Source: Escherichia phage vB_Ec-G8. Taken from it: DNA of 45,511 bases. The notes below the pieces were generated by a model that saw only the letters and a program-made list of their open reading frames with translations, searched no databases and was not told the DNA's origin. Positions 13,246 to 45,511 of the stretch are shown here, piece by piece. Numbering within the stretch: the first letter of the stretch is position 1; each line of letters begins with the position of its first letter. The stretch lies in the sequence record PQ433350.1; one strand, given 5' to 3'. The translations under genes and the position numbers were made by a program.

Positions 13246-13346
13246 TTCATTACCTCGATAGCATTTTTTGTTAAAAGTCATTCTGATTTGATAGTATTAT
13301 TGTACTCAATTAAACGCTACAAGACAATTTTTATAGGAATTTAGAT

Positions 13347-28845: not shown

Positions 28846-28923
28846 GCTCTGCTAGCTCAACGGGAAAGAAGCAACGACCTTCTAAGTCGTAGGTTACTGG
28901 TTCGAATCCAGTGCGGAGCGCCA
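28846..28923 (+). tRNA. tRNA-Arg (anticodon UCU)
   Basis: Cloverleaf folded by hand: 7-bp acceptor stem (GCTCTGC/GCGGAGC with one G-U), anticodon stem ACGAC/GTCGT, loop CTTCTAA (anticodon TCT at 28881-28883), T-arm ACTGG-TTCGAAT-CCAGT, discriminator G and encoded CCA. Confidence 0.85.
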
Positions 28924-29207: not shown

Positions 29208-29251
29208 AAAGTGTTATACCCTCGTTAAGTTTAGTTTCTCTCGTTGTTTTG

Positions 29252-29274
29252 GCCCTCGCTTGAGGGCTTTTTTT
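29252..29274 (+). terminator. Rho-independent terminator before terminase genes
   Basis: GCCCTC-gctt-GAGGGC + T7. Confidence 0.75.
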
Positions 29275-29294
29275 CGTCTGTAATATGGTATAAT
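29268..29294 (+). promoter_or_regulatory. Promoter-like extended -10 (TGgTATAAT) upstream of the terminase genes
   Basis: TGGTATAAT at 29286-29294 directly after the terminator T-run; CGTCTGTA box shared with 35863-35870. Confidence 0.4.
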
Positions 29295-29317
29295 CTGACC
29301 TCAACAAAGGAGGATTT

Positions 29318-29824
29318 ATGAGCAAAGCAGCATTAAAGATGGGTGAGGGAAATTTCAAGGCGCTATACAACAAGAAGTATGGCGACATTGCTATGGTGGC
29401 AATCAACCGCAAGTACACGCCTGAGGAAGTTTTCGATTTCGCCGTTAGATACTTCTCCTGGGCTGAGAGCGAGGCAATTAAGGCTATTGAGACGGCTGCT
29501 TTCCAGGGTGTGGTTAGCGAGAGCCTCGTACACAAGCCTAGAGTATTCACCTTAACTGGGCTGGCGCTCTTTATGGGTGTCAATATCAATAGATTCGCTC
29601 GCTGGCGTACTGAGGCTGGATACTCTGATGTGATGGAATTCATTGATAACGTTATTTACGAGCAGAAGTACCAGCTTGGTGTCGCAGGCATCATCAACTC
29701 TACCATCGTTGGTAAAGAGCTAGGAATTGATAAGCCGCAGGAGATTAAGATTAGCAACAACTCAACAGCTAACGATGTTGACAGTATGAAGGAAGCTCTG
29801 GAATCTGTAATTAGCAAGCTATAA
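29318..29824 (+). CDS. Terminase small subunit
   Basis: 168 aa ORF immediately upstream of the large terminase; AAGGAGGA RBS; assignment by position and size. Confidence 0.7.
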   Translation: MSKAALKMGEGNFKALYNKKYGDIAMVAINRKYTPEEVFDFAVRYFSWAESEAIKAIETAAFQGVVSESLVHKPRVFTLTGLALFMGVNINRFARWRTEAGYSDVMEFIDNVIYEQKYQLGVAGIINSTIVGKELGIDKPQEIKISNNSTANDVDSMKEALESVISKL

Positions 29825-29841
29825 CAATAAGAGGGTATAAC

Positions 29842-31407
29842 ATGTCTTTAGTATGGGAAGAAATGACCATTCAGGAAAAGATGGCTGTTAAGGCGATATC
29901 AGAACACAGCTTCGAGGGTTTCCTTCGTTGCTGGTTCCAGATTACACAAGGCGAACGATACATCCCTAACTGGCATCACAAGTACTTGTGCAGAATCATT
30001 GACGAGATTATTGCAGGCGAAAGAAAGGACACCATTATCAACATAGCACCAGGCAGCGGAAAGACGGAAATTGCCTCAATCCACTTCCCGGCCTATTCGA
30101 TGGTTAAGCTTAGGAAGGTGCGCAACCTTAACATCTCTTTTGCTGACTCCCTGGTTAAGCGTAACTCGAAGCGAGTGCGTGACCTTATCAAGTCTCAAGA
30201 ATTTCAGTCACTCTGGCCATGCAAGTTTGGCACTTGCAAAGACGATGAGCTTCAGGTTCTTGATGAGAGTGGCAAGGTTAGATTTGAGTCAATATCAAAG
30301 GCGGCTGGAGGCCAGATTACTGGCGCTCGCGGTGGGTACATAACCGAAACATACAGCGGAGCCGTTCTTTTGGATGACTTTGACAAACCCGCAGATATGT
30401 TATCAGCAGTGTACCGCTCGAATAATCACGTAATGCTTAAAAATACGATTCGCTCACGTCGAGCCAGTTCTGTAAAAGGCAAAGCGACACCAATCATTTC
30501 GATACAGCAGCGGCTTCACGTCAATGACTCAACCTGGTTCATGATGGAGGGGGGTATGGGTATCGACTTTGACTTGGTTAAGATACCGGCTCTGGTTACT
30601 GAGGATTACATCGACTCGCTCCCTGACTGGATTAAAGATCAGTTTGCTGAGGACGTACTAAGCAGCGAATATATTGAGCGAGATGGCGTAAAGTACTACA
30701 GCTACTTTCCTAAAAAGGAATCCGTAAACGACCTGGTGGCAATGTGGGATAGCGACCCCTACACTTTCCTCAGCCAGTATCAGCAGGAGCCAGTAGCGCT
30801 GGGTGGCAACCTAATTAACGTGGACTGGTTCCAGCGAATCAGTGATACGTTCAGACCTCCAGCTAAGTACGACTATCGATTCATAACTTGCGATACCGCA
30901 ATGACCACTAAAAGTTACAGCGACTTCTCTGTTCTTCAGTTGTGGGGCTATAAAGATGCTAAGATTTACCTTATTGATCAGCGCAGGGGTAAATGGGAGG
31001 CCCCAGAGTTGGAGGCTGAACTGCTGGACTTCGAGAAGAAATCAAGGGCAACCAGTCAGTCAGATGGTATCCTCAGAAAGATTATTATCGAGAAGAAAGC
31101 GTCTGGTATCGGCCTGATTCAATCAGCTGGCAGGGTTATGCGAACACCGATAGAGCCATACGTACCGGATAATGACAAGCTAACCAGGGTGATGAGTGCA
31201 CTACCACAGATTAAGGCTGGTAACGTAGTTCTTCCAGAGTCATCGCCGTGGCTAAACGGATTGCTCACTGAGGTTGCGGCTTTTACGGCAGATGACTCGC
31301 ATAAGCACGACGACCAAATTGACTGTCTAACAATGGCGGTAAACCTTGTGCTTAACATCGCGGATGATCCTAAGGCGAGACTGATGCGCATAGCGGGAAT
31401 GAAATAG
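29842..31407 (+). CDS. Terminase large subunit
   Basis: 521 aa; N-terminal ATPase with Walker A (APGSGKT), C-terminal nuclease-like acidic residues; TAG stop inside an element. Confidence 0.9.
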   Translation: MSLVWEEMTIQEKMAVKAISEHSFEGFLRCWFQITQGERYIPNWHHKYLCRIIDEIIAGERKDTIINIAPGSGKTEIASIHFPAYSMVKLRKVRNLNISFADSLVKRNSKRVRDLIKSQEFQSLWPCKFGTCKDDELQVLDESGKVRFESISKAAGGQITGARGGYITETYSGAVLLDDFDKPADMLSAVYRSNNHVMLKNTIRSRRASSVKGKATPIISIQQRLHVNDSTWFMMEGGMGIDFDLVKIPALVTEDYIDSLPDWIKDQFAEDVLSSEYIERDGVKYYSYFPKKESVNDLVAMWDSDPYTFLSQYQQEPVALGGNLINVDWFQRISDTFRPPAKYDYRFITCDTAMTTKSYSDFSVLQLWGYKDAKIYLIDQRRGKWEAPELEAELLDFEKKSRATSQSDGILRKIIIEKKASGIGLIQSAGRVMRTPIEPYVPDNDKLTRVMSALPQIKAGNVVLPESSPWLNGLLTEVAAFTADDSHKHDDQIDCLTMAVNLVLNIADDPKARLMRIAGMK

Positions 31408-31421
31408 CACAAATTGCTAAA
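31404..31421 (+). promoter_or_regulatory. Boundary element copy inside late operon, precedes moron 31477
   Basis: ATAGCACAAATTGCTAAA, GCCA-cgga-TGGC, TATAGT, TTCACACAAAAGAGAGGAG. Confidence 0.65.
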
Positions 31422-31476
31422 CACTAAAGCCACGGATGGCGTATAGTTACTTCACACAAAAGAGAGGAGAAGAAAG

Positions 31477-31809
31477 ATGAAGGCAGTATTTAAAGGTTAT
31501 AAAAAAGCTGGTCGTTTGGAATTTACTATTGGTAAGATTTATGAGTTATCAGAAACACGCGGAGTGGGTGGATATATGGGGGTGACTGATGACGGTGGCT
31601 TTCGGGCAATATTTATCCCAGACAACATCTATGATTTCGAGGTGTTGATCCCAGATGAATTTATCGGTAAAGAAAGGCAATTCAAATATTACATCAATGG
31701 CGAAGCTGTTTCTAAAGTCAAGTTCGATGATACACTGTTATGCGTCAAGGAATTTAAATCTGATGGCATTGATACATCATCAATCAAGTTCGAAGTAAAA
31801 TTCGAGTAA
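31477..31809 (+). CDS. Hypothetical moron protein (110 aa), paralog of 43772-44137
   Basis: Own element + leader upstream and terminator downstream; shares GYKK N-terminal and FEV-x-FE C-terminal blocks with the 43772 ORF. Confidence 0.55.
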   Translation: MKAVFKGYKKAGRLEFTIGKIYELSETRGVGGYMGVTDDGGFRAIFIPDNIYDFEVLIPDEFIGKERQFKYYINGEAVSKVKFDDTLLCVKEFKSDGIDTSSIKFEVKFE

Positions 31810-31830
31810 CCACAAAAGCTATGATAAACT

Positions 31831-31853
31831 AGCCCCTAAATGGGGCTTTTTTA
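31831..31853 (+). terminator. Terminator-RBS module before portal
   Basis: AGCCCC-taaat-GGGGCT + T6 then ATTGGAGA RBS. Confidence 0.75.
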
Positions 31854-31865
31854 TTGGAGAAAAAC

Positions 31866-33092
31866 ATGGTCAAGACAGACAGCTACGCCAATATCTTTCT
31901 AGGCGGCAGTGATGGTAGTGAGATTTACGGGAGCTTGCAGAACCAATCGCCTACAATTCTGGCTTCGCTTTATGCGGATAATGCACTGGTGCGTCGAATT
32001 ATCGACACAATCCCGGAGACGGCATTAGCGGCAGGATTCCACATTGACGGCATTGATGACGAGCCTGCATTCTGGTCTCGCTGGGACTATCTGGAGTTGA
32101 CAAGGCACATCAACGAAGCGTGGTCGTGGGCTAGATTGTTCGGTGGAGCGGCAATTGTCGCTATCGTTAAGGACAACAGAGCTCTAACAAGCCCAGTCAG
32201 AGAAGGTTCTGAGCTTGAAACTGTTCGCGTATACGACCGCACACAAGTAAAAGTCCAAACTCGAGAGGAGAATCCGCGCAACGCACGTTTTGGTAATCCA
32301 CTAACCTATCGCATCACCACTAATGAGAGCGATATGTTTTACGATGTGCATTACAGCCGCATTCATATCATCGACGGAGAGCGAATCCCTAACGTAATGC
32401 GTCGGCAAAATGATGGCTGGGGCCGTAGCGTTCTCTCCAGTGATATTCTTGACTCAATCAAGGATTACACCAACTGCGAACGACTAGCGACTCAACTGCT
32501 CAAGCGTAAACAGCAAGCGGTCTGGAAAGTCAAGGACCTGGCATTGCTTTGTGATGATAGTGAAGGAGTTGGCGCGGCTCGTTTACGTCTCGCTCAAGTT
32601 GATAACAACAGCGGAGTTGGTCAGGCAATTGGCATTGATGCGGAATCGGAAGAATACAGCATTCTGAACTCTGATATTGGTGGGATTGATGCGTTTCTGG
32701 ATAAGAAGTTTGATAGAATCGTTGCGCTGAGCGGTATTCATGAAATCATCTTGAAGAACAAAAACGTCGGCGGCTTATCATCAAGCCAGAATACAGCGCT
32801 TGAGACATTCCATAAGCTAGTAGATCGAAAGCGTAACGCTGAACTGCTGCCGATTCTCGGGTTCCTGATTCCGTTCATTTCAGACGAGCAAGAATGGTCA
32901 GTGGAGTTTAATCCTCTGGCTCAGGAATCAAGTAAAGATAAAGCGGAGACCCTTGAGAAGAACGTAAACAGTATAGCAACACTAATTGCAGCTGGCGCTA
33001 TGGATACTAGCGAAGCGCGTGATACACTACGAACTATCGCGCCAGAGATTAAGATTGGCGATGGCAATATCGAACCTAAAGAAACAGTCTAG
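31866..33092 (+). CDS. Portal protein
   Basis: 408 aa from ATG 31866 (GGAGA SD; ORF-track start 31854 is TTG); position after terminase. Confidence 0.85.
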   Translation: MVKTDSYANIFLGGSDGSEIYGSLQNQSPTILASLYADNALVRRIIDTIPETALAAGFHIDGIDDEPAFWSRWDYLELTRHINEAWSWARLFGGAAIVAIVKDNRALTSPVREGSELETVRVYDRTQVKVQTREENPRNARFGNPLTYRITTNESDMFYDVHYSRIHIIDGERIPNVMRRQNDGWGRSVLSSDILDSIKDYTNCERLATQLLKRKQQAVWKVKDLALLCDDSEGVGAARLRLAQVDNNSGVGQAIGIDAESEEYSILNSDIGGIDAFLDKKFDRIVALSGIHEIILKNKNVGGLSSSQNTALETFHKLVDRKRNAELLPILGFLIPFISDEQEWSVEFNPLAQESSKDKAETLEKNVNSIATLIAAGAMDTSEARDTLRTIAPEIKIGDGNIEPKETV

Positions 33093-33161
33093 GAAGCAAT
33101 GTCGACGACAGAGGAACCTAATGAATGATGAATTTGATGGCTTTTAGTGAGGAGAATTGGG

Positions 33162-34247
33162 ATGTCTAAAGCCCGCTATGACAGTGTAAAGTTTAAAGCA
33201 ACAATCGACGAGAATGGATTCTTAGTTGACACTCCGGTAGTCGCTCGTCTCGGCGTGCAAGTCTACTACATGGAAGATGGTCGAACGGTTCGAGAGTTTC
33301 GCCCGGCAGAGGAGGTTTTCAATGATGAATCTCTGGCAAGCTACCAGGGTAAGCCAATGACTCTTGATCATGTTTTCGTTAACTCAGAGAACGCTAAAGA
33401 GGTAGTAGTCGGCTCAGTTGCTGGAAAGGCAGAGCCATTAGGCAGCTCCGTGGTTGCTCCAATTGTTATTTACGATAATGCCGCCATTCAGGAAGCTATG
33501 TCAGGTAACGCAAAGGAGTTATCCGTTGGATACTCATCAGTCATTGATTACACCCCAGGTTGGGGTGACCCTGTTACTGGTGAGTACTTCCTTAAGTCTG
33601 AAAGTGAGCTATTCGACGTACCAGAAGGATGGCAGGAGTTCGACGCAATTCAGCGTGACATTAAAGTGAACCATCTCGCAATGGTATATCGCGGTCGCGC
33701 AGGTATTGCCAAATTGAATATGGACGGTGAGCAGGAAAACCCGTATACTACTGACGTTGATATCAATAAAGAGGATAAACAGGAAATGATTAAGATTAAA
33801 CTCGACGGCGCGCAGGAATTCGAAGTCGCCCCGGAAATCGCTTCTCACATCGAAGCGCTGAACGCAAAGGCTGACACCGCAATCGCAGAGCGCGACTCGC
33901 TGAAAGCTAAGGTAGATGCAATGCCAGCTGAAATCGAGAAAGCAGTAGCTAAAGCTAAAGCTGATGCCGATGCCCTAGCCGCTCTGGTTGCTGTTGCTGC
34001 TGAAGCTGGTGTTAAGGCTGACGGCCTGGATGCTAAAGGCATTAAAGTTGCTTACGTTAAAGAAGTCTCCGGTCTTGATGTTTCCGAGAAGTCTGACGCT
34101 TACATCGACGCAGCGTTCGACATTGCCAAAGAATCTGATAAAATGGCTGAAGTACGTAAAGCGACTACCGCTTCCGACAAATCTGACAGCGCCGAAGAGC
34201 CTAAGAAATTAGACCCGCGTGCTCGTTTAGCTAAAATTAAGAAATAA
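33162..34247 (+). CDS. Head morphogenesis protein (putative prohead protease / scaffold)
   Basis: 361 aa from ATG 33162 (GAGGAG SD; ORF-track start is GTG); C-terminal Ala/Lys/Glu/Asp-rich coiled-coil-like scaffold tail. Confidence 0.55.
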   Translation: MSKARYDSVKFKATIDENGFLVDTPVVARLGVQVYYMEDGRTVREFRPAEEVFNDESLASYQGKPMTLDHVFVNSENAKEVVVGSVAGKAEPLGSSVVAPIVIYDNAAIQEAMSGNAKELSVGYSSVIDYTPGWGDPVTGEYFLKSESELFDVPEGWQEFDAIQRDIKVNHLAMVYRGRAGIAKLNMDGEQENPYTTDVDINKEDKQEMIKIKLDGAQEFEVAPEIASHIEALNAKADTAIAERDSLKAKVDAMPAEIEKAVAKAKADADALAALVAVAAEAGVKADGLDAKGIKVAYVKEVSGLDVSEKSDAYIDAAFDIAKESDKMAEVRKATTASDKSDSAEEPKKLDPRARLAKIKK

Positions 34248-34259
34248 GGAGTTATAAAC

Positions 34260-34769
34260 ATGGCAATTCGTTCCGTAGCACTGGCTGGTATGGTTTCTGA
34301 TACTTCTCTGTATAACATCGACGGCGCTTGCGTAGTTGGCGGCAGCGATGCAATTCCGGTTGGTACTGTTGTTGGTGTAACAGCCGCTCAGCCTATAGAT
34401 GGTCACAAAGTTGTTGGCCTTCCAGCTGTAACTGGCACGGCAGTTAAACCTTATGGTGTTGTTGTTAAATCTCATTACGAGACTCCAGATGGCACAGCTC
34501 GCGTAAATGAAGCAGTTAACGTAATGACTCATGGTCGCATCTGGGTTCGCACCACTTTAGCAGCCGCGCCAGTTTTTGGTAGCAAGGTTTTCGTAAACGC
34601 AAGTGGTGTAGTTGTTGCTGAAGCGGCTACTACTACTTGGGAAACTGGTTTTACATTTGCTGGCGGTTACATCGCAAACACTGGCACAGACCCACAAAAC
34701 CTGAGCGTTGATGGTGCCCTAGTTGAGGTTCAGCTTATCCAATCCACGGACTCAACCGTTGCAGCATAA
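34260..34769 (+). CDS. Head protein (possible decoration protein)
   Basis: 169 aa, Gly/Val/Ala/Thr-rich beta-type composition; AAGGAG RBS; between scaffold-like gene and major capsid gene. Confidence 0.5.
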   Translation: MAIRSVALAGMVSDTSLYNIDGACVVGGSDAIPVGTVVGVTAAQPIDGHKVVGLPAVTGTAVKPYGVVVKSHYETPDGTARVNEAVNVMTHGRIWVRTTLAAAPVFGSKVFVNASGVVVAEAATTTWETGFTFAGGYIANTGTDPQNLSVDGALVEVQLIQSTDSTVAA

Positions 34770-34786
34770 TAGTTAAGACTAAACTA

Positions 34787-34808
34787 ACCCGCTTCGGCGG
34801 GTTTTTTA
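34787..34808 (+). terminator. Rho-independent terminator (UUCG loop)
   Basis: ACCCGC-ttcg-GCGGGT + T6. Confidence 0.75.
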
Positions 34809-34892
34809 TTGCCTATCATCTCATCATTGCGTGGTCTAAAAACTCGTGTATAATGAACACGTAGACACCTAACTGAAAAGGAACAATAAAGA

Positions 34893-35834
34893 ATGGCCAT
34901 TAAATTTGATGCAGAACAAGCAAAAATCACCGCTCATCTCGAGCAAATGGGCGTAGACAAAGCTGATGCCGCTGGTATCTGGACCGTTAAGCAACTGACC
35001 GCCAATCTGGCACGTGCTTACGAAAAAGAATATCCAGACAACTCCGTTGTTAATATCTTCCCTGTAACCAATGAAATCCCAGGTCATGCGAAATATTTCG
35101 AATATCCAGAATTTGACGGCGTTGGCATTGCTCAGATTATCGCTGATTACTCTGACGACTTGCCGCTGGTTGATGCGTTTATGACCGAGAAACAAGGTAA
35201 AGTGTTCCGCTTCGGTAACGCGTTCCTGATCTCTACTGATGAAATCAAAGCTGGCGCTGCTACTGGTCAATCGCTGTCATCTCGTAAGCAGGCGTTGGCA
35301 TTCGAAGCGCACGATAACCTGTTGGATAAACTGGTATGGTCCGGCTCTACACCGCACGGCATTCCTAGCGTATTCGACCATCCGAACATCAACAACGTTG
35401 TTGCTGGTACGTGGAACTCCGCAGCTGCCGCCATGACTGATATTACCGCACTTATTGATGCAATCGAGACTTCGACTAATGGCACTCACACCGCAACTGA
35501 TATTCTGCTGCCTGCTTCCGCTCGCCGCCTGATGCAAGAGCTGGTTCCTAACACCTCTATCAGTTACGCGCAGCTGTTCGCCACCAACAACTCGGGTATC
35601 AATCTGCGTTACCTTCAGTTCCTGGATAACTACGATGGCGCAGGCGGCAAGGCTGCTCTGGCTTTTGAGAAGGATCCGCTGAACGCTAGCATCGAGATTC
35701 CAGAAGCTACCAACGTACTTCCTGGTCAACCGAAAGATTTGCACTTTAAGTACCCGGTAACTTCTAAAGCGACAGGTTTGATTTTATATCGTCCTCTGAC
35801 GATGGCAGTAATGAAAGGCATTACCTACCAGTAA
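34893..35834 (+). CDS. Major capsid protein
   Basis: 313 aa; strong codon usage; position and size; bracketed by terminators. Confidence 0.8.
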   Translation: MAIKFDAEQAKITAHLEQMGVDKADAAGIWTVKQLTANLARAYEKEYPDNSVVNIFPVTNEIPGHAKYFEYPEFDGVGIAQIIADYSDDLPLVDAFMTEKQGKVFRFGNAFLISTDEIKAGAATGQSLSSRKQALAFEAHDNLLDKLVWSGSTPHGIPSVFDHPNINNVVAGTWNSAAAAMTDITALIDAIETSTNGTHTATDILLPASARRLMQELVPNTSISYAQLFATNNSGINLRYLQFLDNYDGAGGKAALAFEKDPLNASIEIPEATNVLPGQPKDLHFKYPVTSKATGLILYRPLTMAVMKGITYQ

Positions 35835-35840
35835 TAAATG

Positions 35841-35862
35841 GCCCTCTTCGGAGGGCTTTTTT
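35841..35862 (+). terminator. Rho-independent terminator after major capsid gene (UUCG loop)
   Basis: GCCCTC-ttcg-GAGGGC + T6. Confidence 0.8.
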
Positions 35863-35926
35863 ACGTCTGTACCAAATGGATTTGTTGAGTTATAATCACT
35901 CAATCAGATAAACAAAGGAGACAAAA

Positions 35927-36172
35927 ATGATTCGTTTAGAACACACTGGCGCTTGCCTTATCGTTTATAAGGGTGAGAAATATCTGCCTGGTGACACTTT
36001 CGAGGCTGATGCAATTTGCGACGGACTCAAGCGCTTAATCGCAGAGGGTAAGCTCACCATTGAGGGTGACGCAAAAGCAACCAAGCAAATCGCGCAAGAA
36101 ATTGTTAGCAAGAAAAAGCGCAAAGAACCGAAAACCATCTCCGAAGCTGAGACTGGTAACGAGTACAAATAA
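35927..36172 (+). CDS. Hypothetical head-tail region protein (81 aa)
   Basis: AAGGAG RBS; terminator-like hairpin downstream. Confidence 0.5.
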   Translation: MIRLEHTGACLIVYKGEKYLPGDTFEADAICDGLKRLIAEGKLTIEGDAKATKQIAQEIVSKKKRKEPKTISEAETGNEYK

Positions 36173-36213
36173 TAAACAGGGCGCTTCGGCGTCCTTTATT
36201 GTATGGAGCTAAT

Positions 36214-36615
36214 ATGAATGATGCAATTTTGGCGTTTATGCGATCGCTTGTTCCTGCGCTCAAAGCGGTGGATGACGAATCAATTAATGTATGGATTGAT
36301 TTGGCACGTCTATACGTATGCGAAAGCAAGTTTGGCGCAGACAAAGACAAGGCTACCGCGCTTTATGCACTGCACCTGATGCTTTCTGATGGCGCGTTTA
36401 AGGGCGAGAGCGAAGGCCTTGAAGCATACAGTCGTAGAATGGCAAGTTATGCACTGAGCGGTGAATTCTCTATCACCTATGATAACCAATCAGCAATCCA
36501 AGGTGATTTATCATCTTCCTCCTGGGGCCGTATGTACAAAGCACTTCTCCGCAAGAAAGGTGGCGGCTTTGGACTGATTACTTCCGCTCGTGGCGGTGGG
36601 TGCGGTTGCCGATGA
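36214..36615 (+). CDS. Head-tail connector/adaptor protein (putative)
   Basis: 133 aa from ATG 36214 with GGAG SD (ORF-track start is TTG); position. Confidence 0.5.
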   Translation: MNDAILAFMRSLVPALKAVDDESINVWIDLARLYVCESKFGADKDKATALYALHLMLSDGAFKGESEGLEAYSRRMASYALSGEFSITYDNQSAIQGDLSSSSWGRMYKALLRKKGGGFGLITSARGGGCGCR

Positions 36616-36983
36616 ACTACAACGAAATCGAATCAATTACTCGCGCTGGCATTAACTTCTTTAGTGATGCCAATGGCTTTTACGAGATGAGCACGGGTGC
36701 TGGATATGTTGAAATCGTTAACGGCGTTGAAGTAGATGTTCCTTCGCAGACATTCCAGCTAAAAGGCTTGGTGCGAGAAATCAAGACGCGCGATATCGAT
36801 GGTGAGTTTATCCAGTTTGGCGATAAGCGCGGAATCTTCACAGCACAGGCGGAAATTAAGCAGGGTTATCAGATTAAAGTTGATGGCGAGACTTTCGTTG
36901 TTGTTGACCCTCGGCCTGTAAAACCAACCGGCACAGTTGTTGGTTATAGACCGATTCTTCGTAGGGTGGCTACTTATGGCTAG
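36612..36983 (+). CDS. Head-tail joining protein (putative)
   Basis: ATGA-coupled to the upstream gene. Confidence 0.5.
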   Translation: MNYNEIESITRAGINFFSDANGFYEMSTGAGYVEIVNGVEVDVPSQTFQLKGLVREIKTRDIDGEFIQFGDKRGIFTAQAEIKQGYQIKVDGETFVVVDPRPVKPTGTVVGYRPILRRVATYG

Positions 36984-37413
36984 AAATATTGGAAGTGTCG
37001 CTACGTTTGAGAAATCTATTGCTGACTGGATTAACAGAGCAGATAAGGGATTTGAAATTGTAGTCGCCAACACGGTTACCAAGACAGCCAACGCAATTGT
37101 TGACCTTTCTCCTGTCGACACTGGTAGGTTCAAGGCTAACTGGCAAATCACCGCAAACTCACCAGCCAAGCAGTCGCTAAATGAGTACGATCAGACTGGT
37201 GGACAGACCAAAACATATCTCTCAAGACAGGCCAGGGCTGTCGCAAACTCGCCGGCAACAAGAGTTATTTATATAACTAACCGACTTGATTACGCAGCCG
37301 ACCTTGAGTATGGCGCTTCAAACCAGGCTCCTGCTGGTGTATTAGGCGTGGTGCAAGCAAGGTTGGGCAGGTATTTTCAGGAAGCGGTGGAGGAGGCTCG
37401 TCGTGCAATATGA
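36976..37413 (+). CDS. Tail completion / head-tail joining protein (putative)
   Basis: ATG 36976 with AGGGTGG SD, 8-nt overlap with the upstream gene. Confidence 0.5.
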   Translation: MARNIGSVATFEKSIADWINRADKGFEIVVANTVTKTANAIVDLSPVDTGRFKANWQITANSPAKQSLNEYDQTGGQTKTYLSRQARAVANSPATRVIYITNRLDYAADLEYGASNQAPAGVLGVVQARLGRYFQEAVEEARRAI

Positions 37414-37804
37414 ATTGTCATTAGCAGCAAGGAAGTTCGTCAACGATTTGTTGGTGAATGAATTTCCGGTCAGGTATCCAGTTGCGTGGGAGAATACTGC
37501 ATTCACCCCTCCTGCGGATGGATCAATCTGGCTTAAGTACGACTACACGGAAGTTGATACTGTAACCTACGGATTAAGCAGGAAGTGCAAATACTACGTA
37601 GGCATGGTGCAGATTTCTGTTTTCTTCAGCCCTGGCACTGGAATTGATAGACCCAGACAAATCGCTAATCAATTGGCAGAATCTATCGTTGATGGTACAA
37701 TGCTTGACAGCGGGACCATTTATGAGTCTGGAGTTGTTAACCCCGTTATCAAATCCAAGTCTGGGTGGTTTATCCCGGTTCGTTTTTATGTTCGTCTAGA
37801 CTAA
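37403..37804 (+). CDS. Tail terminator-like protein (putative)
   Basis: GTG start with GGAGG SD; precedes the major tail gene. Confidence 0.45.
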   Translation: MQYELSLAARKFVNDLLVNEFPVRYPVAWENTAFTPPADGSIWLKYDYTEVDTVTYGLSRKCKYYVGMVQISVFFSPGTGIDRPRQIANQLAESIVDGTMLDSGTIYESGVVNPVIKSKSGWFIPVRFYVRLD

Positions 37805-37819
37805 CAAAAGGAAAAATAC

Positions 37820-38476
37820 ATGGCCCATCTCAGCAATGGCACGCAGGTCTTCGTAGAAGGCTCTCGCGGAGCTGCAATTGACGTAACAGCAATTTCTAAC
37901 GCAGTTACCCCTGTTTTAACTGTATCTGACGCATCAGGCTTGGTTGTTGGTGATTACCTGCTTTTCACCTTCTCTGCTTCGACGCTTCTGGCTGACAAGC
38001 AGGTTCGCGTAACTGCAATCTCTGGCACGTCAGTAACTGTTGAAGGTATTGATACCTCCAGCACTACCAAGTTCCCAGCTGGTTTAACTGGTGAAGTTGT
38101 TAAGATCACTTCATGGTTCGAAGTTCCGTGCGTTCAGGACGTATCCACTGATGGCGGCGAGCAGCAGTTCGTTAACTTCCAGTGTCTTTCTGATGACCGT
38201 GAACAGCAGATTCCGACTTATAAATCTGCCGTAACAAACACCTTTACATTTGCTCATGAGTACACTAACCCGGTTTATCCGGTTCTTCGCAACTACGATG
38301 AGTCGGGTCAGGTTGTTGCGATTCGACTGTTCGTACCTCGCGCTAGCGAAATGCGTTTGCAGTCTGGTACTATCGCTTTCAACGACACCCCTACCATTGG
38401 TGTTAACGAAATCGAAACGGTATCCATCGCGGTATCAATCCGCGGTCGACTGTCTTCGGTGGCGGCTGAAGTTTAA
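37820..38476 (+). CDS. Major tail protein
   Basis: 218 aa; position between connector genes and chaperones/tape measure; followed by terminator. Confidence 0.75.
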   Translation: MAHLSNGTQVFVEGSRGAAIDVTAISNAVTPVLTVSDASGLVVGDYLLFTFSASTLLADKQVRVTAISGTSVTVEGIDTSSTTKFPAGLTGEVVKITSWFEVPCVQDVSTDGGEQQFVNFQCLSDDREQQIPTYKSAVTNTFTFAHEYTNPVYPVLRNYDESGQVVAIRLFVPRASEMRLQSGTIAFNDTPTIGVNEIETVSIAVSIRGRLSSVAAEV

Positions 38477-38482
38477 AACACA

Positions 38483-38506
38483 AACCCTCTTCGGAGGGTT
38501 TTTTAT
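38483..38506 (+). terminator. Rho-independent terminator after major tail gene (UUCG loop)
   Basis: AACCCTC-ttcg-GAGGGTT + T6. Confidence 0.8.
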
Positions 38507-38509
38507 TAC

Positions 38510-38528
38510 ATAGCACTTTTTGCTAAAG
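38510..38528 (+). promoter_or_regulatory. Boundary element copy inside tail operon, precedes moron 38587
   Basis: ATAGCACTTTTTGCTAAAG, TGTATAGT, CTCATCGAAAAGAAATGAGAG. Confidence 0.65.
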
Positions 38529-38586
38529 CCTTGATTCAATCTTACTGTATAGTTATCTCATCGAAAAGAAATGAGAGATTAAAGAA

Positions 38587-38835
38587 ATGAATAACGTTAA
38601 AAACATCATCAAGCTTGCTGCAGTTCTGGTTGCTTTTTATGCAGCAGTTCAGATCGTCAACCCAACTGGCGAGGCTGATGCGAATAGCAAGGCAAAAAAA
38701 TATACTGTTGAGTTTGCTAAAGCTGAGCGAACATGCAAGGAACTTGTAGGTGGTAAAGTTGACCAAATAATGAAATATGGCAAAGAGGTTTGTAAGGACT
38801 CGGCTGCTAAGATTGCAAAAGAAAACACTAAGTAA
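38587..38835 (+). CDS. Small secreted/membrane-anchored moron protein (82 aa)
   Basis: N-terminal signal-like hydrophobic segment (IIKLAAVLVAFYAAVQIV), Lys-rich with 2 Cys; own element + leader upstream. Confidence 0.5.
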   Translation: MNNVKNIIKLAAVLVAFYAAVQIVNPTGEADANSKAKKYTVEFAKAERTCKELVGGKVDQIMKYGKEVCKDSAAKIAKENTK

Positions 38836-38874
38836 TAGAATACATACTCACAAACAATAAGAGGATTAACTAAG

Positions 38875-39189
38875 ATGGCAAAGTTCAAACTTTCACTGGC
38901 GGCACTGCCAGACTTCAAGCTACCAGTAAAATTCAAACTGGCTAACGACCAGGATGTAGAAGTTATTTTTACAGTTAAGCACAAGAAGACCTCCGAGCTT
39001 CAGGAGTTACTTCAAAAAGAAGACTTGAGTACTAAAGAATTGATTATGGCAATTGCCTCTGACTGGGACCTGGAAGAGGAGTACAACGAGGATAACGTTA
39101 ATGAGTTCTCAGACCTATTCCCAGCCTCAACAGTTGCGCTTACTACAGCTTACATGCAGGCGCTTGCTGGTCAGCGAGTAAAAAACTAA
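38875..39189 (+). CDS. Tail assembly chaperone (gpG-like)
   Basis: 104 aa acidic protein immediately upstream of the tape measure gene; ends at slippery A_AAA_AAC. Confidence 0.7.
   Translation: MAKFKLSLAALPDFKLPVKFKLANDQDVEVIFTVKHKKTSELQELLQKEDLSTKELIMAIASDWDLEEEYNEDNVNEFSDLFPASTVALTTAYMQALAGQRVKN
39180..39186 (+). other. Programmed -1 ribosomal frameshift slippery heptamer A_AAA_AAC
   Basis: X_XXY_YYZ heptamer in the G frame directly before the G stop; -1 frame continues open for 103 codons. Confidence 0.6.
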
Positions 39190-39197
39190 AACGAGCG

Positions 39198-39509
39198 GTG
39201 TATCTACAGTACCAGTCAGAGCCAACTGATGCCGAGCTGGAAGCTATTGGGATGCGCCGCTCTGATTACGAAGATGAAGAGCCTGAAGTTTTGCACTTCG
39301 ACGACAATATGATGAAGGCGTGGGACATTTACTGTTCAATGGCTACACAATGGAGAGTCGGGGCTAACGGAGCTACAGGGTTAGATTACAACGTGCTAAA
39401 TTTCCTCTTTAGAGTGTATAATGTCTCAGAAGAAGAATTGGTGCTCAGCGATTTACGCATCCTTGAAGCTAAGGCTCTTGAGATGATGGATAACCTGAGA
39501 AAAAAATAA
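39198..39509 (+). CDS. Tail assembly chaperone -1 frameshift extension (gpGT-like C-terminal part)
   Basis: -1 frame ORF with no credible independent start, reachable by -1 slip at A_AAA_AAC (39180-39186). Confidence 0.6.
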   Translation: MYLQYQSEPTDAELEAIGMRRSDYEDEEPEVLHFDDNMMKAWDIYCSMATQWRVGANGATGLDYNVLNFLFRVYNVSEEELVLSDLRILEAKALEMMDNLRKK

Positions 39510-39530
39510 CCCGCTTCGGCGGGTTTTCTA
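39509..39530 (+). terminator. Terminator/attenuator hairpin before tape measure (UUCG loop)
   Basis: ACCCGC-ttcg-GCGGGT + TTTTCT. Confidence 0.55.
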
Positions 39531-39544
39531 TTATGGAGGCTTAG

Positions 39545-42523
39545 ATGGCAACAAATGAATTAGCCGGAATCACACTAGCCGTAGACGTCTCGCAGGTAGA
39601 CAGGGGAACGCAATCCCTACAAAAGTTCAGACAGGCCAACCAACAGGCTGCATCTGGGATTAGTGAGTTCGTCAATGCTGAGCAGGTTGCTAAAAACCAG
39701 GCTAGAGATACCGCTCGCGCACTTGCTGAGCAACAGGCATCTTTAGCTAAATTGCAAACAGCTATTGACCCAACTGCGGCAAAATTCCGCAAGCTGCAGG
39801 AGGCTGCTGTAGGTCTTGATAAGGCGTTCGCTGCTGGAGTGGTTCCCGATGAGGAGTTTTTCCGCTTAGGCGAGGCACTTGAAACGCAGAATGCAAAACT
39901 TGCTCGTTCACGTGCGGCGCTAACTGAAGAGGGTAGAGCAGCTGCTCAGGCTGCAAAAGATAAAGCAAAGGCAAAGGCTGAAGCTGACAGGTTCATTGCT
40001 TCACTTGAGCGCCAGGCTCAAGCGGCAACATTGACGCGCGAGGAGTACTTAAAGTTACAGGCTGCTCAGCTTGGTGTAAGTTCCCAGGCAGCACCCATCA
40101 TTGACAGAATCGCCGATGCATCACAGAAGGCAAACACCCAGCTAATTGCTCAGAGCAAGGCTTTTCAGCGCTCTGGCTTAAGCGCAGGTCAATACAAGAA
40201 TGCCATATCTCAACTACCAGCGCAGATTACTGATATTGGCACGTCGCTTGCTGGAGGCATTCCGATTTGGCTTATTGCAATTCAGCAGGGTGGGCAGATC
40301 AAGGATGCATTTGGCGGTATTGGTAACACCTTTAGATTCGCGCTTGAAGCCTTAAACCCATTTAATGTAGCTGTTGGTGTTTTGGGTGGGGCGCTTGTAG
40401 CTCTTGGTGTTGGTGCAGCTCAGGCTGAGAGTGAATTCAGGGCGTTAAACTCCGCGATTGTGTTCTCCAACAACTCTACAATCGCATCAATCTCGCAGGT
40501 TAGAGAGTTGGTTAGCTCTGTTTCTGATGCAACAGGTGCTACCAGAGGACTTGTGACTAGCATCGCAACAAGCCTTATTGAGCAAGGGAACCTTACGCTG
40601 ACGCAGATTGACAAGATTACTAAATCGACCGCAAGATGGGCGCAGTTGACAGGTAAGGATGCGAAGGAGATTACTGGTTACTATAACCAGATTGCAAGCG
40701 ACCCAATCCAGGGTTTAGTTGATTTGGATAAGCGCTTTAACTTCCTCACACAGGGGCAGTTGACGACAATCGAAAACCTGAGAAAGACAAAGGGAGAAGT
40801 TGAGGCCGTTACTGCTGCGATTGATATTTTCAGCAAGTCTCAGGAAGCCAACCTTAACGACATAGCTGCGCAGTTAACTCCGCTTGAGCTAGCCTGGAAT
40901 GATTTCAGAAAGTACATCTCTGATATCTGGGATGCAATTAGTCGTAGAACGGTCGGGGCGCTGAACCTATTTGTTGACGTAATCGCCGGAACGATTGAAC
41001 AGATCAGGGTATTCATTAACCAGGGTGATGTTCTGATTGGTGAATTCGTAATTAGCGCAACTCAGGCATTGCAGAACATTCCTGGTCTTGATGGCGTTGG
41101 TGATGATGTTATCAAGGGGCAGCAGAAGATTATCGATGCCGCCAAGAAGCAAAACCTTGAGCTAGAGAAGTCAATCAAGGAGCGAGATGCCAGAATCAGA
41201 GAGGGAGAGCTTGGTTACGTTACTCGCAGAGAAAATCAGAATACCAATGAGCAGTCAGGTACTGATGAGGAATTTGCAAAAAGGAAGAAGGCGCTTCAGG
41301 ATGAGCTTGATGCGATCAAGAAGAACAGGAAAGAAGAAAATAGTAGGGTTAAGGAGCAAAGAGATTTAACAATTGGTTATGAATCTGGCGTTCTGGCGCT
41401 TCAGGCTCAACTCAAGGTGCTTCAGGAAAACAGGGATATTGGCGCAGTAATAAGCAATGAGCGCAAGCAGTATCTTCAGGAGGAGGCCAAATTCAGGATT
41501 CTTGAGCAGAGACAACTTGATGGCTCAATTACCAAAGAGCAAGCAAGACTTCTCATTGAAAAGGATAAAGTTCTTGAGTTAGCCAGACAGAAGGCTGAGC
41601 TAGGTGATCAGATTGTTTTGCAGGAGCGAGCTAATAAGTTAGCTGAAGATAACCGCAAGAAGATTCTTCAGATTAACAATGAGGCAAGTAACATTGATTT
41701 GGGTGCTGGTTTATCATCTCGCGAGCAGCAGAGAGCCAAAGAGATTCAGGCTCTTCAATCCAATCAGGTTAATGCTGGTGGTTCTGTTGATGATGTTGAT
41801 TTTCAGCAATTGCTGGAAGCAAGAAAGGAATACTACAAGCAGGAGGATAATCTTAGGTCAGACTGGCAATCCGGTGTAACATCCACTCTCGCCGACTTGA
41901 CAGAGAAGTACACTGACTACAACCAGATTGCTAAGGACTTAACTGTTGCGGCATTCGATGGAATTACAGACCAGATTACAAACCTTGTAACCACTGGTGA
42001 GACCAATTTCAGGGAGTTCACCGCAAGCATCCTCAAAATGATTGCGAAGATTGCAACTCAGTTGCTTTTGGTTAAAGCTATAGAATCAACACTAACTAGT
42101 TTTGGTGGTGGTGGTGGTAACGCGTTTGGCTCGCTTGCATCTGCTATAGGTTTTGCTGGTGGCGGTTACACTGGTGATGGTGGGAAGTATCAGCCAGCAG
42201 GTACGGTTCATCGAGGTGAGTTTGTATTCACAAAAGAAGCGACAAGCCGAATTGGTGTCAAAAACCTTTATGCGCTAATGAAGGGTTACGCAAACGGCGG
42301 CGCGGTTGGTGGTCCTTCAGGATATGCAAATGGCGGCTTGGTTTCTGGTGGTTCAGATGTTAATGTTAGCGGGATTACTGTTAACGTCAATGGTGGCGTT
42401 GGTAGCGACCCAGAGCATGCCAAAGCATTGCAGAGCGGCGTCAAGGCTATCGTAGCGGAAGAAATTGCTCAGTCTTTCCAGCAGGGTGGGCGTGCCTATG
42501 CTTACCTTCGCGGATTCAACTAA
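39545..42523 (+). CDS. Tail tape measure protein
   Basis: 992 aa; coiled-coil Ala/Gln/Lys/Glu-rich; Gly-rich C-terminal region; GGAGG RBS. Confidence 0.9.
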   Translation: MATNELAGITLAVDVSQVDRGTQSLQKFRQANQQAASGISEFVNAEQVAKNQARDTARALAEQQASLAKLQTAIDPTAAKFRKLQEAAVGLDKAFAAGVVPDEEFFRLGEALETQNAKLARSRAALTEEGRAAAQAAKDKAKAKAEADRFIASLERQAQAATLTREEYLKLQAAQLGVSSQAAPIIDRIADASQKANTQLIAQSKAFQRSGLSAGQYKNAISQLPAQITDIGTSLAGGIPIWLIAIQQGGQIKDAFGGIGNTFRFALEALNPFNVAVGVLGGALVALGVGAAQAESEFRALNSAIVFSNNSTIASISQVRELVSSVSDATGATRGLVTSIATSLIEQGNLTLTQIDKITKSTARWAQLTGKDAKEITGYYNQIASDPIQGLVDLDKRFNFLTQGQLTTIENLRKTKGEVEAVTAAIDIFSKSQEANLNDIAAQLTPLELAWNDFRKYISDIWDAISRRTVGALNLFVDVIAGTIEQIRVFINQGDVLIGEFVISATQALQNIPGLDGVGDDVIKGQQKIIDAAKKQNLELEKSIKERDARIREGELGYVTRRENQNTNEQSGTDEEFAKRKKALQDELDAIKKNRKEENSRVKEQRDLTIGYESGVLALQAQLKVLQENRDIGAVISNERKQYLQEEAKFRILEQRQLDGSITKEQARLLIEKDKVLELARQKAELGDQIVLQERANKLAEDNRKKILQINNEASNIDLGAGLSSREQQRAKEIQALQSNQVNAGGSVDDVDFQQLLEARKEYYKQEDNLRSDWQSGVTSTLADLTEKYTDYNQIAKDLTVAAFDGITDQITNLVTTGETNFREFTASILKMIAKIATQLLLVKAIESTLTSFGGGGGNAFGSLASAIGFAGGGYTGDGGKYQPAGTVHRGEFVFTKEATSRIGVKNLYALMKGYANGGAVGGPSGYANGGLVSGGSDVNVSGITVNVNGGVGSDPEHAKALQSGVKAIVAEEIAQSFQQGGRAYAYLRGFN

Positions 42524-42553
42524 TTAACGGGGCCTCGGCCCCTAAGGATTTTT

Positions 42554-42904
42554 ATGGCTATTGATACTTTTAATTACTGCACTCAAGTCCAAAATGGAGG
42601 CGGCTCATTCTCTAACACTAACAACGTGCGAATTGTTAGCTTCGGCAATGGTTACGAGCAGCGTGGGACTGGCGGTTATCGAAGTAACAAGCGAAGCTAC
42701 CAGATGACTTACACAAACAAGGACTGGCGGGAGGTGATGGAATTTTGCTTTAACCACATCATTACCCCGTTCTTCTGGACTACGCCGCATGGTGACACAT
42801 CAATGTTTGTGATTCAGCAAGATAGCATTAGCGTCACGCCACTCAGTAAGGAAGTTCAGACTGTAAACATGCAATTCGTGGAAGTCTTTAGCTCAATGCG
42901 TTAA
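42554..42904 (+). CDS. Minor tail protein (lambda gpM-like)
   Basis: 116 aa; position between tape measure and gpL-like gene. Confidence 0.75.
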   Translation: MAIDTFNYCTQVQNGGGSFSNTNNVRIVSFGNGYEQRGTGGYRSNKRSYQMTYTNKDWREVMEFCFNHIITPFFWTTPHGDTSMFVIQQDSISVTPLSKEVQTVNMQFVEVFSSMR

Positions 42905-42908
42905 ACTA

Positions 42909-42930
42909 AGCCCCATTAGGGGCTTTTTTA
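42909..42930 (+). terminator. Terminator-RBS module before gpL
   Basis: AGCCCC-atta-GGGGCT + T6 then ATTGGAGA. Confidence 0.7.
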
Positions 42931-42942
42931 TTGGAGAAATAT

Positions 42943-43698: not shown

Positions 43699-43717
43699 AT
43701 AGCACTTTTTGCTAAAG
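43699..43717 (+). promoter_or_regulatory. Boundary element copy inside tail operon, precedes moron 43772
   Basis: TAA-ATAGCACTTTTTGCTAAAG, hairpin, TATAGT, CTCACACAAACGAGAGG. Confidence 0.65.
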
Positions 43718-43771
43718 ACGAACAGCAAAGGATGGCGTATAGTTACCTCACACAAACGAGAGGATATAAAA

Positions 43772-44137: not shown

Positions 44138-44156
44138 ACTAAATTAGTGTTAAACT

Positions 44157-44184
44157 AGGTCAATCGAAAGGTTGGCCTTTTTTA
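44157..44184 (+). terminator. Terminator-RBS module before gpK
   Basis: AGGTCAA-tcgaaagg-TTGGCCT (one G-U) + T6 then ATTGGAGA. Confidence 0.6.
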
Positions 44185-44195
44185 TTGGAGATAAA

Positions 44196-45507: not shown

Positions 45508-45511
45508 ACAT

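Follow-up and report, generated by a model that had tools for sequence, protein, structure and literature searches.

The late operon of Escherichia phage vB_Ec-G8 (PQ433350.1), a T1-like phage (Drexlerviridae, Braunvirinae), contains three near-identical modules in which a hairpin and a run of six Ts lead directly into the ribosome binding site and ATG of an essential structural gene, namely that for the portal, gpL or gpK. We favour, with a probability of roughly 60%, the explanation that these modules are canonical intrinsic terminators whose tails run into the next Shine-Dalgarno (SD) sequence, and that they combine partial termination with read-through. The modules are largely of a known kind: they are ordinary predicted terminators and embody no new regulatory principle. 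Their near-identity arises from a stereotyped tail abutting a common SD, together with the paralogy of two gene cassettes, and does not imply a special control device shared by the three. Throughout, ‘the window’ denotes the whole stretch of DNA that was analysed (45,511 nt), and coordinates refer to its plus strand unless stated otherwise.

The whole window holds exactly three copies of the 14-mer TTTTTTATTGGAGA, at 31847, 42924 and 44178, versus none in 100 dinucleotide-preserving shuffles, which rules out chance recurrence. Each copy lies 3′ of a GC-rich hairpin and 5-6 nt before the ATG of portal, gpL or gpK, just as the original prediction described. Module 1 (31825-31855) comprises the A-tract TAAACT, a stem-loop at 31831-31847 (AGCCCC-TAAAT-GGGGCT) and the tail T6ATT, followed by the SD and start of the portal gene (31856-31868; GGAG at 31856-31859, ATG at 31866; PF06381, E 2e-67). 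In module 2 (42902-42932) the stem-loop occupies 42908-42925 (AAGCCCC/GGGGCTT), the tail is again T6ATT, and the gpM stop codon TAA (42902-42904) falls within the TAAACTA of the module; the SD and start of gpL follow at 42933-42945 (GGAG at 42933-42936, ATG at 42943; PF05100, E 1e-44). Module 3 (44151-44186) has TAAACT, a 9-bp stem with a GAAA loop at 44157-44178 (AGGTCAATC/GGTTGGCCT) and T6ATT, and precedes the SD and start of gpK (44187-44198; GGAG at 44187-44190, ATG at 44196; NlpC/P60 plus JAB).

Neither ATTGGAG alone (8 observed versus 5.8 expected in the window) nor TAAACTA (7 versus 6.6) is enriched, which means that neither of them alone is a genome-wide signal. T6ATT, on the other hand, is found directly 3′ of hairpins in six of its seven plus-strand copies. 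The 14-mer is thus a stereotyped terminator tail (T6ATT) joined to a common GGAGA Shine-Dalgarno sequence.

All three modules have the stem and loop dimensions of intrinsic terminators (stems of 6-9 bp with 4-5 GC pairs, loops of 4-5 nt), and U6AUU begins at the final stem position in each. Their hairpins fold with energies of -13.7 to -15.9 kcal/mol (z from -2.6 to -3.2), the lowest value being that of module 1 with its A/U extension included, and a terminator discriminant is positive for all three (25, 14.5 and 11.9). The SD is unpaired in every fold, with a U-rich tract directly 5′ of it, and a translational hairpin that sequesters the SD is therefore rejected. For a regulated attenuator, we looked for an alternative structure: the minimum free energy and centroid folds both give a single hairpin with an A/U extension and no antiterminator structure, and upstream of the terminators lies the last part of a coding region. 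An Rfam search returned only a tRNA, with no put-like or other RNA element. Of the attenuation that had been proposed for these sites, then, partial termination with obligatory read-through appears the most economical form; no competing antiterminator fold was seen.

In the late region, about 11 co-oriented sites consist of a hairpin and T-run; the three modules are among them, and the others start at 4, 3470, 29251, 34786, 35840, 36178, 38482 and 39508; between 26 and 45.5 kb there are 32 terminator-like sites, versus 16.3 ± 4.6 expected. The hairpin between gpI and gpJ (4-28) consists of ACCCGC-CTAGT-GCGGGT and T6ATT. Upstream of TerS, a terminator at 29251-29275 is followed by TGGTATAAT. 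A sister terminator after a 169-aa gene (34786-34810) has TAAACTA, AACCCGC-TTCG-GCGGGTT and T6ATT, and 3′ of it come TATAAT and, 89 nt on, the start of the major capsid gene; TATAAT also follows the terminator after that gene (35840-35864). At 36178-36200 a weak-tailed hairpin of the SD-abutting type stands directly before the next start. The terminator after the major tail protein gene (38482-38530) has a DR element directly 3′, forming a terminator/promoter composite, and the hairpin before the TMP gene (39508-39547) overlaps the upstream stop and carries a weak tail, TTTTCTATT, an ATGGAGG SD and the TMP ATG at 39545. A further hairpin, at the TMP|gpM junction, has no U tract. The terminators that can be passed only by read-through are those before portal, the 138-aa ORF at 36199, TMP, gpL and gpK.

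At two junctions, TerL|portal and gpM|gpL, the module is an ancestral trait of the family. A hairpin precedes portal in all 31 relatives (L020 included), where four unrelated stem sequences occupy the same position, and T5-7ATTGGAG is invariant there although the portal proteins are only 55% identical. The gpL hairpin is present in 16 of 16 relatives; two of its seven pairs have changed on both sides, so that the changes are compensatory, and 93.9% of cells are paired. Its covariation score, 0.367, compares with 0.126 ± 0.05 in shuffles, none of 500 of which reaches it, in a small sample of seven sequences; this fixed-length subset was used because varying T-runs and loops put the pooled MAFFT alignment out of register. 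At both sites, then, structure is conserved over sequence, as far as these few sequences go. In the relative EC3a (GenBank KY398841), ARNold terminators are annotated at the counterparts of the portal and gpL sites. Anatomy, conservation and this in-silico annotation all fit the claim that intrinsic terminators lie inside the co-oriented structural operon with the ribosome binding site in the tail. The portal and gpL hairpins differ independently within single genomes, for example in phiEB49 (AGCCCC versus AAGACCC), L011/L039 and L012/L040, so there is no support for gene conversion still at work between modules 1 and 2.

Module 3, at gpL|gpK, is not ancestral: it came in with a low-GC promoter-ORF-terminator cassette, of which it forms the 3′ end. 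This cassette, B, starts directly after the gpL stop with a promoter-like end consisting of a DR element and a TATAGT hexamer (43699-43743), continues with ORF-B (43772-44137; 121 aa, phrog_14592, GC 33.3%) and ends in the module 3 terminator. Its counterpart, cassette A, has a promoter-like 5′ end that overlaps the TerL stop (31404-31447; DR element ATAGCACAAATTGCTAA and TATAGT hexamer), followed by ORF-A (31477-31809; 110 aa, phrog_14592, GC 37.2%). In these promoter-like ends TTGCTA lies 22-23 nt from the TATAGT hexamer, which is not standard -35 spacing. The two ORFs are paralogs of the same PHROG, with 39% amino acid and 56% nucleotide identity. Between cassettes A and B the promoter-like ends are 81% identical, the 14-nt tail core T6ATTGGAGA is identical and the whole tail segments are 69% identical; cassette ends are 74-91% identical, versus 53-61% for the interiors. 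The neighbouring TerL, portal, gpL and gpK genes have a GC content of 44-48%, versus 33-37% in ORF-A and ORF-B.

Relatives without the cassettes show what each insertion brought with it. In six of them ORF-A is missing between TerL and portal, and the hairpin directly follows TerL; in ten, gpL and gpK are adjacent, 10-14 nt apart, and the empty junction reads TAA-GG(A/G)G-N7-9-ATG, with no hairpin in relatives that lack cassette B. Conversely, the module 3 hairpin accompanies cassette B in phiEB49, ACG-M12, BEK6, SU57 and AugustePiccard. Cassette B thus supplies its own hairpin to the junction, while cassette A relies on the portal hairpin that was already there. A third paralogous cassette occupies gpM|gpL in JulesPiccard, where its B-type hairpin stands in place of the native one of gpL. 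The inserts are delimited by stop-TAA|ATAGCAC on one side and ...TTTATT|GGAGA on the other. Situated between genes that are adjacent in relatives, with a terminator of their own and a deviant base composition, cassettes A and B are moron-like. The suggestion that the modules insulate morons from late transcription accordingly suits modules 1 and 3, which form the 3′ ends of paralogous promoter-ORF-terminator cassettes, but not module 2, which is no cassette end in this phage, nor the portal hairpin as such, which is present even without the cassette. Pfam gives no match for ORF-A or ORF-B, homologs of ORF-B were found only in T1-like contigs, and the AlphaFold model of ORF-B, the only paralog modelled, is mediocre (pLDDT 71) and has no significant fold match in the PDB. 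RefSeq labels the cassette protein ‘virion structural protein’.

According to the explanation we favour, the modules would be canonical Rho-independent terminators, with a GC-rich stem, a loop, an upstream A-tract and a U6AUU tail that continues straight into the SD GGAG of the next essential structural gene, and would form part of a terminator-punctuated late region typical of T1-like phages. Since the distance from stem to ATG is only 17-18 nt in all three modules, no promoter fits between, and the mRNA of portal, gpL and gpK must be read-through. The sites would be partial terminators: some transcripts would end in the U tract just 5′ of the SD, giving the upstream genes hairpin-protected 3′ ends and closing the cassette transcripts, and the remaining transcripts would continue, carrying an unstructured U-rich leader and the SD. 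The stop codon lies 3 nt from the stem at gpM|gpL, versus 19-21 nt at the cassette terminators, and distance-dependent repression of terminators by ribosomes has been reported (PMC4824070); ribosomes stopping 3 nt from the stem would probably aid read-through at gpM|gpL, with less aid at the cassette terminators. The literature searched for T1-like phages yielded no RNA 3′-end, transcriptome or expression data.

Several observations sit awkwardly with partial termination. The A-tract pairing and the long U run make the modules look like strong terminators, and reading through up to 10 of them in series would leave little transcript for the distal tail genes, unless internal promoters or a factor compensate. 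Moreover, the portal and capsid genes are needed more abundantly than TerL, and a terminator that follows TerL directly and precedes them misfits a simple stoichiometric step-down.

A rival explanation is a phage-encoded processive antitermination system: RNA polymerase started at DR elements would be modified to ignore the hairpins, and unmodified early or host read-in would be stopped, yielding temporal control of late genes. In favour of such a system are three strong-looking terminators without a downstream promoter in a series of about ten, the conserved architecture and conserved transcribed leader of the 17 DR elements (an already known, unexplained repeat in TLS, T1 and Rtp), and the presence of genes for an HTH regulator (12772-13281, minus strand) and a Rha-like one (4782-5534, minus strand). 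However, the DR elements also drive early-strand genes and hence are not late-specific, and Rfam, as stated above, offers no put-like element. Nor is Q, N or another known antiterminator family found among the proteins scanned by Pfam (25 window proteins and IME253 gp14, many small ORFs having no detectable family) or in the annotations of JulesPiccard and IME253; the IME253 ‘RNA-binding protein’, considered as a candidate antiterminator, is an ASCH/DUF3850 protein. We therefore regard antitermination as an unlikely account, and the original prediction of antitermination control is unsupported both by these scans and by the folds. It is also improbable, if slightly less so, that the modules cause little termination and serve instead as post-transcriptional elements, that is, as 3′ stabilisers after RNase E cleavage, as a translational enhancer in which U6AUU binds S1, or both. 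AU-rich leaders enhance translation, and the U-rich tract directly 5′ of an unpaired SD, the T5-7ATTGGAG kept before divergent portal genes while the stems change, and the hairpin without a U tract at TMP|gpM would all suit that role. Yet the same T6ATT tail follows hairpins with no adjoining SD (34786, 38482 and window 4-20), and a stem, U run and upstream A-tract are what RNA polymerase responds to, so that some termination is hard to avoid. RNase III substrates are longer than stems of 6-9 bp, which counts against the post-transcriptional role and leads us to reject an RNase III site. A third possibility is a promoter overlapping each terminator. The hexamers TAAACT (in TGnTAAACT), TACAAT or TATAAT, 2-3 nt before the stem, could be read as a -10 or extended -10; TAnnnT is kept at divergent portal junctions (TAAACT, TACACT, TACAAT), often preceded by TGn, and is a perfect TATAAT in the T1 group. 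But TAAACTA, besides being unenriched, supplies the A-tract with which the U tail pairs, and it is missing at five of six other late hairpins examined (29251, 35840, 36178, 38482 and 39508, with 34786 the exception); a consensus scan finds no -35 or promoter there. We consider it very improbable that these hexamers are promoter elements, and just as improbable that transcripts start in the 5′ arm, and so run into the next gene without the hairpin.

A different kind of explanation addresses the likeness of the modules and is compatible with partial termination and read-through. Under it, the DR-promoter and terminator-tail ends would serve as recombination linkers, like the PeSL promoter/stem-loop elements of T4-like phages, through which homologous or microhomology recombination could exchange small ORFs or shift them from one late-operon junction to another. 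At each of the three module junctions, one phage or another has a phrog_14592 cassette: TerL|portal in the window and others, gpL|gpK in the window, phiEB49 and others, and gpM|gpL in JulesPiccard, where the B-type hairpin travels with its cassette and displaces the native one; the contrast between conserved ends and diverged interiors, the insert boundaries and the PeSL precedent (PMC4122927) point the same way. Against this, the portal and gpL hairpins drift independently within a genome, with no ongoing homogenisation seen, a single move between junctions is documented, only about 15-30 nt of homology is shared, and the conserved ends could reflect selection on promoter or terminator function. 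We hold the linker role to be tenable, but on balance doubtful. In a stronger form, the ends would be portable junctions by which the small, rapidly evolving, low-GC genes of phrog_14592 hop among at least three junctions of an essential operon; each insertion puts a strong terminator before an essential gene, so that the phage would need DR-started polymerase with an unrecognised resistance to terminators, and this we think unlikely.

Late-gene control is poorly understood in T1-like phages, a common family that is represented in therapy collections and is a notorious laboratory contaminant. The present map separates terminators that are followed by a promoter from those that require read-through, ties three junctions to a mobile cassette family, and offers sites for the safe insertion of payload genes in phage engineering.

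Partial terminators with read-through are known inside other operons, for example T-phi after the capsid gene of T7 and the attenuating terminators of E. coli rpsU-dnaG-rpoD and rplJL-rpoBC. As at those sites, an intrinsic terminator lies in a co-oriented operon and the essential genes downstream are reached via read-through transcripts only; the phage studied here differs in having many sites in series and, compared with T-phi, which acts on T7 RNA polymerase, in its presumed use of the host enzyme. Antitermination by lambda Q and N acts on late or early operons, where terminators likewise lie in the path of transcription needed by essential genes, but here we find no Q or N homolog, no qut- or nut-like element and no sign that the terminators are conditional.

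Cassettes A and B resemble the morons of the lambdoid phages HK97 and HK022 (PMC3594210) in lying in the head or tail operon between genes adjacent in relatives, with promoter-like and terminator elements of their own and a deviant, low GC content. They differ in that their host phage is virulent, as T1-like phages are described to be (PMC11447400), so that prophage expression probably does not apply, that the promoter-like element is of the phage's own DR type, and that the family is paralogous and uses three alternative junctions. The PeSL elements of T4-like phages (PMC2839356, PMC4122927) are similar in that small variable ORFs are bordered by conserved stem-loop and promoter motifs, which also seem to lie at indel boundaries; the terminator and DR composite at 38482-38530 and the cassettes, with a DR element at the 5′ end and a hairpin at the 3′ end, have this arrangement. 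However, they belong to another phage family with another promoter consensus, the motif here being the DR of Drexlerviridae rather than a T4-type early promoter; the present elements lie inside a conserved structural operon and not in hyperplastic regions, and very few events point to recombination at them.

Closest of all are the terminators predicted in T1-like phages themselves. The papers searched contain no description of the family-wide fusion of T5-7ATTGGAG with the SD, of the promoterless sites or of the link to cassettes, and the earlier accounts are per-genome in-silico lists. Late ‘transcriptons’ and predicted rho-independent terminators of T1 go back to Roberts et al. 2004, as cited in PMC11447400. 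The terminators predicted for KY398841 and in PMC11447400 come from the same family, share the anatomy of a hairpin plus T-run and have DR repeats nearby, and the ARNold sites of KY398841 occupy the same positions as ours: before portal, after the capsid and tail-tube genes, before TMP and before gpL.

The original prediction held that a terminator, a ribosome-binding site and a start codon recur as a unit at three junctions of the late operon, and all three sites bear this description out. Each consists of a GC-rich stem-loop, T6, ATT, the Shine-Dalgarno (SD) sequence GGAGA, 5-6 nt and ATG. On the plus strand, the stem-loop of module 1 (31831-31847) precedes the portal ATG at 31866, that of module 2 (42908-42925) the gpL ATG at 42943, and that of module 3 (44157-44178) the gpK ATG at 44196; the downstream ORFs encode portal, lambda-L-like and lambda-K-like proteins. 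The 14-mer TTTTTTATTGGAGA has exactly three copies in 45.5 kb, every one on the plus strand, and is found in 0 of 100 dinucleotide-preserving shuffles. The recurrence of the three modules is real and non-random. Folded as RNA, their hairpins have energies of -13.7 to -15.9 kcal/mol (z about -3); the upstream A-tract is predicted to pair with some of the U tail, and the SD stays unpaired.

The modules are not, however, special islands within the late region. The late half of the window holds 32 terminator-like sites, twice the expectation (16.3 +/- 4.6). Co-oriented intergenic hairpins number about 11 (29251, 31831, 34786, 35840, 36178, 38482, 39508, 42908, 44157, 4 and 3470). Because 6 of the 7 plus-strand copies of TTTTTTATT directly follow co-oriented hairpins, the terminators of this phage have T6ATT as their stereotyped tail, and the 14-mer is that tail abutting the common SD GGAGA. 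When the hairpins from 29251 to 44157 are classified by what comes after them, four are followed by promoter-like sequence (TGGTATAAT at 29251, TATAAT at 34786 and 35840, a DR element at 38482), and five have a start codon within about 20 nt, with no space for a promoter (31831, 36178, 39508, 42908 and 44157). A classical terminator discriminant, serving for ranking only, places the three modules among the strongest sites and the SD-abutting hairpins at 36178 and 39508 among the weak.

At 29251-29300, 34786-34880 and 35840-35915, a near-perfect -10 hexamer lies about 15-60 nt after each terminator (TGGTATAAT, GTGTATAAT and GTTATAAT, respectively), and the 29251 and 35840 sites have in common a 33-nt repeat, 85% identical, with CGTCTGTA inside it. 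All three sites resemble terminator/promoter composites placed before TerS, MCP and an 81-aa gene. The hairpin GGGGCCTCGGCCCC (42529-42542), between the tape-measure gene and gpM, has no U tract, and the gpM SD comes directly after it; its appearance is that of a pure RNA hairpin, not of a terminator.

This T1-like coliphage belongs to the Drexlerviridae (Braunvirinae) and shares about 88% identity with Veterinaerplatzvirus T145P1, IME253 and JulesPiccard. Since gpI, at the 3' end, runs on into gpJ, at the 5' end, the window is probably a complete, circularly permuted genome; a hairpin with T6ATT between these two genes (4-28 with 45505-45511) spans its ends. A tRNA gene (28846-28920; Rfam, 56.6 bits) sits a short way upstream of the packaging genes, where relatives have an annotated tRNA-Arg(TCT), and an HNH_3 endonuclease ORF lies at 18531-19004 (+).

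Among relatives, a hairpin, T4-7 and ATTGGAG(A/G) precede the portal start in 31/31 IMG/VR loci encoding a portal homolog, including one (L020) whose portal is only 55% identical. The stems at this site differ wholly among groups (AGCCCC/GGGGCT; GCCCCT/AGGGGC; GGGCTGTC/GACGGCCC; GGCTGG/CCAGCC); the tail and SD are invariant. At gpM|gpL, a hairpin and T-run stand in each of the 16 loci that encode a gpL homolog, and in 14 they run straight into ATTGGAG. In a small, fixed-register subset of the gpL hairpins, 2 of 7 pairs have changed on both sides (AU to GC; CG to AU or GC), 93.9% of cells are paired, and the covariation score is reached by 0 of 500 shuffles. The ORF of cassette A, which adjoins module 1, is absent from loci L003, L004, L009-L011 and L013, where the hairpin stands directly 3' of the TerL stop. 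We conclude that modules 1 and 2 are ancestral, cassette A having been inserted in front of module 1.

Modules 1 and 3 are immediately preceded by ORF-A (31477-31809, +) and ORF-B (43772-44137, +), respectively, two paralogs (39% amino acid identity, E 7e-10, both phrog_14592). Each is preceded by promoter-like ATAGCACnnnTTGCTAA, 22-23 nt, TATAGT, a conserved leader and an SD; the promoter-like element starts at the TerL (A) or gpL (B) stop codon or directly behind it. Their GC content is 33-37%, versus 44-48% in neighbouring genes. Cassette B has its own hairpin, AGGTCAATC-GARA-GRTTGGCCT with T6ATT. Among paralogous cassettes, the promoter ends (67-87% identical) and the tail segments within a type (81-92%) resemble each other more closely than do the ORFs (53-61% between the diverged paralogs); tails of A- and B-type cassettes are 64-69% identical.

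A-type ORFs always lie at TerL|portal; tblastn with ORF-A matched 29 records, of which at least the AugustePiccard match is a gpL|gpK cassette. Cassette B occupies gpL|gpK in this phage as well as in phiEB49, ACG-M12, BEK6, SU57 and AugustePiccard. The 14 phage records matched by ORF-B in tblastn place it at more than one junction: four Rogunavirinae records match near 1600-2700, and Opt-79, the one inspected, has the ORF at TerL|portal. JulesPiccard has a B-type cassette at gpM|gpL, together with the B-type hairpin, in place of the native AAGCCCC hairpin. All three junctions are linked to one paralogous, apparently mobile, low-GC cassette family. Homologs of ORF-B occur only in T1-like phage contigs. 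Pfam gave no match to either paralog, and a PDB fold search with the mediocre AlphaFold model of ORF-B gave none. The family's proteins have a conserved C-terminus, I(K/D)FEV(K/Y/S)FE; its RefSeq label is 'virion structural protein', for which a keyword search of T1-like genome papers found no support.

In most relatives gpK begins 10-14 nt after gpL (TAA-GG(A/G)G-N7-9-ATG), with no hairpin, and we conclude that module 3 arrived with cassette B. Variation at this junction is seen in window 43699-44186 and loci L035, L042, L043, L047, L048, L049 and L056. In some relatives a DR-like element leads into an HNH-type homing-endonuclease-like ORF, and IME253 has a reverse-oriented Rha-like regulator gene. 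Because the junction is variously empty or filled by cassette B, an HNH-type ORF or a Rha-like gene, it is an insertion hot spot across Braunvirinae.

The promoter-like DR element, A(T/C)AGCACnnnTT(G/T)nTAA, has 17 sites in the window (for example 26202, 26922, 27360, 28258, 31404, 38510 and 43699 on the plus strand; 4785, 5544, 22560, 22991, 23300 and 24477 on the minus strand) and includes the palindrome TAGCA-N5-TGCTA. A TATAGT/TATAAT-like hexamer follows 22-23 nt downstream, so that the element's centre falls near -42, as in a class II activator site; after the hexamer come a conserved leader (TACCACATCAAAAC-like), SD and ATG. In the TLS/T1/Rtp literature the element figures as a 21-nt repeat without explanation (PMC11447400). 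Candidate DR binders are a Rha-domain protein (4782-5534, -) and a 169-aa protein (12772-13281, -) whose Cro-like HTH match is weak, below the Pfam cut-off.

How, then, might the modules act? Antitermination, one of the original suggestions, is unsupported: our search for a processive system found no known factor and no RNA element. Room for it is left by the many small ORFs without annotation and by the DR elements, for which there is no explanation yet. A purely post-transcriptional role, as a 3' stabiliser or a U-rich S1 enhancer, would account for the invariant UUAUUGGAG, but the identical tail also occurs at terminators far from any SD. A conserved TAnnnT hexamer gives a weak hint of a promoter overlapping each terminator (TGnTAAACT), but the motif shows neither enrichment nor a -35 element. 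Use of the modules as PeSL-like recombination linkers (cf. PMC4122927) agrees with the cassette breakpoints and conserved ends, despite being based on few events, and would complement the terminator reading rather than replace it.

Anatomy and conservation give good support to reading the modules as intrinsic terminators, and this reading is already part of the family's annotation and literature: related genomes have ARNold 'terminator' features at both homologous sites, ahead of portal and of gpL, and 18-21 predicted terminators have been reported in other T1-like genomes. What we add is modest, namely the decomposition of the repeat into terminator tail and SD, the family-wide conservation of their fusion, the tie of three junctions to one cassette family, and the distinction of which terminators must be read through. 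Because only 17-18 nt separate stem and ATG in the three modules, portal, gpL and gpK would be transcribed only by read-through, and such obligatory read-through would make the three sites partial terminators. RNAs that terminate would stop just short of the SD; those that read through would include it. The proposed insulation of morons suits modules 1 and 3, which have paralogous cassettes directly upstream, but not module 2. The stop codon lies 3 nt from the stem for gpM, 21 nt for ORF-A and 19 nt for ORF-B. At lambda tR2, termination is almost completely repressed when the stop codon lies a few bp before the terminator, and efficiency rises to about 0.9 beyond 30 bp (PMC4824070); by analogy, these distances suggest that ribosomes suppress module 2 more than they do the cassette terminators.
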